Below the pieces are notes generated by a model. The model did no database searches. It was given only the letters and a program-made list of their open reading frames with translations, and was not told the origin of the DNA. A program made the translations under genes and the position numbers. This document shows, one piece after another, positions 60,564-60,744 of a DNA stretch of 64,000 bases. The DNA lies in NCBI GenBank assembly GCA_951406725.2, contig OX597832.1:43338001-43402000 (forward strand). Direction: 5' to 3'. The stretch is from Octopus vulgaris. Taxonomy: Eukaryota. Within the stretch, counting starts at the first letter, position 1; each line of letters starts with the position of its first letter.

Positions 60564-60643
60564 GCACCGCCAAAACGGGGAGTTTTCAGCCTTATCATTA
60601 ATGGTGCGAAATTGATTATTACCAATTGGTTGATAACTGATGA
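60564..60643 (+). ncRNA. Candidate permuted hammerhead ribozyme, copy 2
   Basis: GCACC-17nt-TCAGC-C-TTATCA-TTAAT-GGTGC-GAA-ATTGA-15nt-TGATAA-CTGATGA: same architecture as 38494-38566 with compensatory stem changes; position 16.1 is C instead of U. Confidence 0.55.
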
Positions 60644-60744
60644 AGAATTAGGGATCTTCTGTGTCTGGCTCCCGTCCGGTTGTACACCAGTAGTATACGT
60701 ATACGTTTTTTTATGTCATTGCATTGTTTATTTACATTGCAATT

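Follow-up and report, generated by a model that had tools for sequence, protein, structure and literature searches.

What should be made of a locus that holds all the parts of a hammerhead ribozyme in a scrambled order? Such a site lies near 60564 of the window (the whole 64,000-nt stretch of Octopus vulgaris DNA that was analysed), where an earlier note had described a permuted hammerhead and taken it for a second copy of a motif seen elsewhere in the window, here copy 1. Each of the segments it listed was found in place: GCACC at 60564-60568, C60590 and C60591, UUAUCA at 60592-60597, GGUGC-GAAA at 60603-60611 and UGAUAA-CUGAUGA at 60631-60643. Stems I, II and III, the CUGANGA core (CUGAUGA, 60637-60643) and GAAA (60608-60611) are all present, and the permuted hammerhead is borne out. 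The motif is larger than first described, spanning 60538-60653; two further helices (IV and V) had been overlooked, as had a break in the catalytic strand, the 5' strand of stem II sitting upstream of CUGANGA. When a descriptor combining the stem II 5' strand, the cleavage block, the GAAA block and stem I-CUGANGA was run on the whole window, two sites were returned, the one at 60564 only with position 16.1 relaxed and the other being copy 1. The strand-order descriptor had no match in 300 dinucleotide shuffles.

The window site is a worn copy of a retroelement repeat that carries all hammerhead parts in this scrambled order. We searched the genome (2.8 Gb, 227 contigs) for the repeat, here family 2, scored 40 of 878 candidates and aligned 37 copies including that of the window, four partial matches being left out; percentages of paired cells refer to this alignment. 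The monomer measures about 680-770 nt and contains no credible ORF. Among 30 loci (L001-L030), seven show same-strand repeats 678-1066 nt apart, that is partial tandems, and three show inverted pairs. A (TA)4+ run lies at most 140 nt downstream in 21 of the 37 copies, versus 22% of background windows, and the (TA)n microsatellite is likely the insertion target of the family. The coordinates of all features are collected in the table.

Table. Features of the family-2 copy and of copy 1, in window coordinates
Feature	Position	Strand	Evidence or remark
Family-2 copy, 5'-truncated, non-coding interspersed repeat	60387..60748 (about)	+	42 matches, 81-88% identity excluding self
Helix IV, 5' strand	60538..60548	+	partner strand 60644-60653 with one U bulged out; each position paired in 26-34 of 35-36 copies; in all five families
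Hairpin V, abuts stem II	60549..60563	+	four outer positions each paired in 27-34 of 36 copies; in all five families
Stem II, 5' strand, displaced upstream of the cleavage block (G10.1 = 60564)	60564..60568	+	90% of family-2 cells pair
Stem I-II interaction helix, 5' strand	60569..60573	+	pairs with 60626-60630; 91% paired in family 2
Stem III 3' strand, position 16.1 (C60590), position 17 (C60591); predicted cut after 60591	60585..60591	+	family-2 alignment
Stem I, 3' strand	60592..60597	+	96% paired in family 2
UUAAU linker, stem I to stem II	60598..60602	+	sequence; identical linker in family 1
Block G: stem II 3' strand, G12-A13-A14-A15.1, stem III 5' strand	60603..60616	+	family-2 alignment
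Interaction helix 3' strand, stem I 5' strand, CUGAUGA (A9 = 60643)	60626..60643	+	family-2 alignment
Helix IV, 3' strand, begins immediately 3' of A9	60644..60653	+	family-2 alignment
UCCCGUCCG motif, downstream	60670..60678	+	possible partner of loop 60575-60580, family 2 only
(TA)n microsatellite at 3' end	60749..60778	.	sequence
Copy 1, family 1, same six-helix layout, intact core	38402..38644; motif 38566-38494	-	predicted cut between 38545 and 38544

Read from 5' to 3', the strands follow one another as IV, hairpin V, II, the I-II helix, the block III/U16.1/H17/I, a short linker, II/GAAA/III, the I-II helix again, I/CUGANGA and the 3' strand of IV. In the accessible part of their paper, Eckert, Friedrich, Weinberg and Weinberg (2023, PMC10085705) divide the hammerhead into three blocks named S, G and C; the order found here is the S-G-C circle opened within block C. 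The stem II 5' strand is located 79 nt upstream of A9, so that block C is interrupted. In family 2, hairpin V fills the interval between the 5' strand of IV and G10.1 with no spacer. These strand paths match a predicted four-way junction in which IV runs on into V, stem II runs on into G12 and the strands exchange at A9 and G10.1; helices IV and V are predicted to link A9 to G10.1 in this way. As to the other end of this domain, a spacer between A9 and helix IV is absent in family 2 and in the published end of the element Naiad_Amil (supplement of PMC8557442, as far as accessible), while UU stands opposite UU at this point in family 1 and in the end of Naiad_Bfor from the same source.

Minimum-energy folds of five reference copies (ViennaRNA), a method that cannot represent pseudoknots, gave both IV and V for the family-1 copy only. 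In an Rfam search, whose models follow the canonical type I/II/III order, no match reached the gathering score in four loci whose copies have an intact or nearly intact core, and no hammerhead appeared among the 150 matches listed, of 342, for the window, where microsatellite-driven miRNA matches were found. The joining of CUGANGA to the upstream strand by splicing or back-splicing was considered and rejected, the AG before 60564 being variable (mostly GG) and no GT following A9.

Within family 2 the covariation claimed for the three stems holds, with 96, 90 and 89% of the cells paired in stems I, II and III, respectively. The contact proposed between GCC and GGU is likewise supported, as part of a longer stem I-II helix of 5-8 bp. 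Its pair 60573/60626 is A-U in 17, G-C in 14, G-U in 4 and G-G in 1 of 36 copies; this exchange of A-U and G-C is one change between two subfamilies. The GCCA said to be invariant after the stem II 5' strand reads in fact RCCA (G in 25 and A in 11 of 36). The suggested pairing of the loop with the downstream CCCGU would be possible in 29-34 of 36 copies per pair, with no two-sided change, and families 1 and 3 have no room for it; text related to the UCCCGUCCG motif is present in both of these families.

Counts made inside one family are not independent, because copies share ancestry, which would speak for pairings that are chance features of the repeats. What argues against such an origin is that the six helices are common to five repeat families of the genome. 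When the commonest pair per column was taken for each family, 118 of 120 cells pair (24 positions in six helices), with two-sided, compensating changes at 23 of the 24 positions, G10.1-C11.1 being constant as the commonest pair in all five. Shuffling the 3' strands among families gave a mean of 74 and a maximum of 100 paired cells, and none of 5000 shuffles reached 118. The copies counted were 36 for family 2, 37 for family 1, 21 for family 3, 20 for family 5 and 41 for the last family, referred to below as Naiad. As families 1 and 3 share 73% identity, the five families stand for at most four lineages. With four unrelated lineages whose helix sequences differ, and with the empty shuffles of the strand-order descriptor, we consider a chance origin extremely improbable.

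The stem I-II helix covaries and has 4-10 bp in all five families, and helix IV has just three firm pairs in the octopus Naiad. The commonest cut-site triplets of the five families are GUC, AUC, GUC, GUA and GUC, and GUC is found in 25 of 36 family-2 copies. The core is intact in 34 of 37 copies of family 1, 32 of 41 of Naiad, 15 of 20 of family 5 and 13 of 21 of family 3. The two sites of the window share a layout, as the earlier note had seen, and are not copies of one family, since the monomers of families 1 and 2 have no BLASTN similarity. Family 1 gave 3425 candidates at 95-97% identity and 1622 exact matches to a 24-mer, and it is younger than family 2 and unrelated to it. Pattern and descriptor searches returned 1407 candidates for family 3 and 3039 for family 5. 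The latter was located by the descriptor in the flanks of other copies, around oriented bases 1044 and 706 on the minus strands of L038 and L061, respectively, and around 1145 on the plus strand of L020, and comprises subfamilies with compensated stem I. A genome pattern with an over-long spacer was dropped after 4 matches versus 5 in the controls, and three pattern matches, including L064 and L065, were set aside as chance.

One could also imagine that block C is intact after all, in an ordinary type-SGC hammerhead with one or two inserted bases, and that the upstream strand together with IV and V forms an inhibitory switch. A contiguous stem II can indeed be drawn in family 2 in the +1 register, as G-C, A-G, A-U, U-G and U-G, with 76% of cells paired, its second position, A-G, pairing in 0 of 36 copies. 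In the best register it reaches 79% in family 5 and 80% in Naiad (+2), both with four of five pairs; the best registers of the three families contain a mismatch and G-U pairs. The known hammerhead HRIMA-1 has one inserted base at the A9/G10.1 step, according to the accessible part of PMC10085705. Against this, families 1 and 3 have no contiguous stem II (45% of cells paired at most), nor could one be made out by eye in Naiad_Amil. In each of the five reference copies its energy is also far less favourable (-0.1 kcal/mol in that of family 2, versus -9.1 for the upstream duplex). Moreover, the upstream strand always opens with a G opposite C11.1 and continues into the strand of the I-II helix, as a true stem II would. 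We thus judge a switch built on an intact block C quite improbable.

The split hammerhead of the window copy itself has decayed. The earlier note had supposed that C60590, at position 16.1, is specific to this copy, and a T is indeed found there in 35 of its 36 relatives. By the NUH rule, a C at 16.1 would be expected to slow cleavage. Within 60538-60653 the window copy has 10 letters other than the commonest of the family, some of them at 16.1, in stem III (on either strand) and in hairpin V. The hairpin is weakened to three pairs followed by C-U, and stem III, which in most relatives consists of five Watson-Crick pairs plus A15.1-U16.1, is decayed. With its C16.1 and its weak stem III and hairpin V, the window copy is, to judge from its sequence, likely an impaired ribozyme. 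In the family as a whole the core is intact in 11 of 36 copies, or 11 of the 37 aligned. C11.1-G12 (60607-60608) is a CpG; among 36 copies, 12 have A in place of the G and 5 have T in place of the C, and its decay is a main route of core loss in old copies.

Some Penelope-associated hammerheads reportedly work as dimers (Luense et al. are said to have described this in 2017), and the palindrome ACCAAUUGGU of the window copy had been put forward as a dimer interface. It is palindromic in this copy and is present in only 5 of 36 relatives; its 3' half belongs to the stem I-II helix, where it pairs in cis with RCCAR and covaries. As one molecule can form all six helices, we regard an RNA acting as a dimer through this linker as very improbable.

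A clue to the origin of these repeats comes from the Naiads, a group of Penelope-like elements. Craig et al. (2021, PMC8557442), in the part of their paper accessible to us, report Naiads without a canonical hammerhead, some being flagged only as 'HHR_core' or 'HHR_half_core' with no fold given. The motif of the published Naiad_Ovul end has 298 exact matches in the genome and none in the controls. RT remnants lie upstream of this motif in L143, L128, L141 and L110, one of three RT pieces matching RVT_1 (E 1.2e-4, below the curated cut-off), and one of our five families is therefore assigned to the Naiad group of Penelope-like elements. Twenty such copies taken with 4 kb of flank are mostly short remnants. 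The linked retroelement that had been anticipated is thus found in the form of a Naiad RT remnant upstream of the same layout at four loci, and not in the form of an ORF linked to family 2.

The relationship between Naiad and family 2 is a matter of layout only, because no similarity could be detected between them: the family-2 monomer has no BLASTN match to the Naiad tail of L143. In the loci examined, no RT match was found beside families 1, 2, 3 or 5, and for family 2 mobilisation by Naiad is therefore deduced from layout, tandem structure and target only. According to the accessible part of PMC8557442, Naiads resemble family 2 in their partial tandems, inverted copies and (TA)n ends, and the Naiad_Ovul and Naiad_Obim ends have the same RNA layout. 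They differ from it in their ORF with an N-terminal GIY-YIG and RT, whereas family 2 lacks an ORF as well as any detectable resemblance to Naiad. We propose that family 2 is likely the tail of a non-coding Penelope-like retroelement mobilised by Naiad.

We parsed by eye 26 of the 54 published Naiad 3' ends in the accessible part of the PMC8557442 supplement, mostly over the last 520-600 nt, the names of preceding entries following the order of the metadata. Seven (Obim, Ovul, Esco, Bfor, 3_Chem, Amil and 2_Movir), which span three phyla, namely ctenophore, cnidarians and cephalopods, were recognised as having the split form, helices IV and V included; stem I has just two pairs in Bfor, and the UUAAU linker recurs in Amil and 2_Movir. 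Five others (Hpol, Smim, 2_Nbra, 3_Nbra and Hcon) appear by eye to be of type CSG with block C intact and to carry long stem I-II helices, a type for which the accessible part of Eckert et al. 2023 (PMC10085705) gives only two examples. The remaining 14 show neither form within the part examined by eye. Elsewhere in this supplement, as far as accessible, the ends of Naiad-1_Dst, Naiad-2_Dst and Naiad-3_Dst have a CUGACGA core whose flanks are complementary in yet another arrangement, and those of Naiad_CGi and Naiad_Tgra have a common non-hammerhead motif directly 3' of the stop codon. The split layout, being common to several Naiads, is likely the ribozyme that Naiads were reported to lack. 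More generally, we find it fairly probable that Naiads across animal phyla carry non-circularly permuted hammerheads, one branch of which (ctenophore, cnidarians, cephalopods and non-coding passengers) would use a four-block topology where a four-way junction replaces the A9-G10.1 link, the RNA still being self-cleaving.

We propose that in intact copies the six helices would fold and restore a hammerhead core, which would cleave the RNA after H17. Tandem transcripts would be trimmed into products that stay paired, RT then stopping at the cut or copying through it. We give this reading a probability of about 0.7. In such a fold, hairpin V would stack on IV and stem II on the A9-G12 pair, and strand exchange at the A9/G10.1 step would rebuild the normal core. 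Cutting in the repeated tail would trim tandem transcripts and fix an RNA 5' end, with the cleavage products remaining held together by IV, II, III and the I-II helix. Reverse transcription would start at a 3' signal about 150 nt downstream; a stop at the cut would give short copies and read-through would give partial tandems.

If the RNA is cut, copies should frequently start at the cut. This was examined in 93 family-1 copies chosen by a motif downstream of the core, at the first 90 of 1622 places. Forty-one of them reach more than 86 nt upstream of the predicted cut, so that uncut or still-paired RNA is often copied. Of the 52 that remain, 21 begin between 0 and +12 relative to the cut, a window set after these data had been seen (expected share 0.10, p 6.6e-9); after removal of eight with TA microhomology, 13 of 44 do so (p 2e-4). 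This pile-up is suggestive of cleavage, and RT stalling or microhomology could contribute to it. It was not reproduced in Naiad, where 5 of 29 truncated copies, from 70 examined, start at -3 to +12 (p 0.30). In family 5, 4 of 23 ends are at the cut, a count confounded by subfamily divergence, and the family-2 sample, at 18 matches, is too small to be informative. The family-1 stretch is covered by assembled contigs from four runs guessed to be RNA; a deep contig (run X2) that ends at 38544, beside the predicted cut, was discarded as evidence, since contigs cannot show RNA ends.

These 5' ends bear on another explanation, in which the fold is real and serves mainly as a protein-binding or priming signal for RT, the split core being inactive or protein-gated and cleavage rare or absent. 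Such a role would fit the genomic copies, which continue about 100-150 nt past the predicted cut, and the Naiad copies, which show no excess of 5' ends. It does not account for the steep rise of family-1 5' ends at the cut, nor for the maintenance of the catalytic bases, of U16.1, of a non-G at position 17 and of G10.1-C11.1 while the helix sequences turn over. We consider a mainly RT-related signal unlikely and retain self-cleavage of the intact copies as the better account.

How does such a split hammerhead compare with the known ones? In the accessible part of PMC10085705, types SGC, CSG and GCS are validated in vitro, block C is assumed to be uninterruptible, and insertions at A9/G10.1 are stated not to exceed 1-2 bases in any known hammerhead alignment. 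The octopus motif resembles these types in the cyclic order S-G-C, in the short linker between stems I and II, in the helix that connects the far sides of these two stems and in all the core bases. It differs from them in that block C, uninterrupted there, is split here. A parallel can be drawn with the plus-strand hammerhead of CChMVd, which, in the accessible part of PMC3705267, tolerates one extra base between A9 and G10.1. A departure at this step is tolerated there, as is posited here, but it is limited to one extra base within a canonical order, whereas here the backbone exits into a two-helix domain.

Retrozymes reportedly use a type I hammerhead and a circular RNA, as is said in de la Pena's work. 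Non-LTR retrozymes, in the accessible part of a recent preprint (bioRxiv 10.64898/2026.07.22.740005), are likewise non-coding, tandem, hammerhead-bearing repeats, and retrozymes are proposed there to derive from Penelope-like pseudo-LTRs. Family 2 differs from them in its permuted split hammerhead and its longer monomer of about 750 nt. The same part of the preprint mentions Naiads merely as a clade. In our literature search, in which subscription papers were thinly covered, we came across no description of a block C that is split, nor of Naiads with permuted hammerheads. The S-G-C permutation itself was already known (PMC10085705, accessible part), and the new element is the split of block C, which contradicts the stated assumption that restricts hammerheads to six permutations.

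Non-circular permutations, so far rarities of metatranscriptomes, would thereby number thousands of copies in the genomes of animals. The reported absence of hammerheads in Naiads was used to argue that ribozymes are perhaps dispensable passengers of Penelope-like elements (PMC8557442, in the part accessible), and the present motif gives a direct test of this puzzle. As the fold is missed by standard Rfam and RNAmotif searches, invertebrate ribozymes have likely been undercounted. For RNA design, a core able to accommodate a four-way junction would provide a new attachment point.

Finally, the surroundings of the window copy are themselves rich in repeats. Directly after the (TA)n lies a near-perfect, MITE-like inverted repeat (60773-61310) with arms of about 230 nt that are 98.7% alike; its match to MIR4208 scores 74 bits, far under the cut-off of 140 bits. 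On the other side, 59890-60300 contains two to three head-to-tail fragments of a different and abundant SINE-like repeat, of which 60201-60296 matches several other loci.
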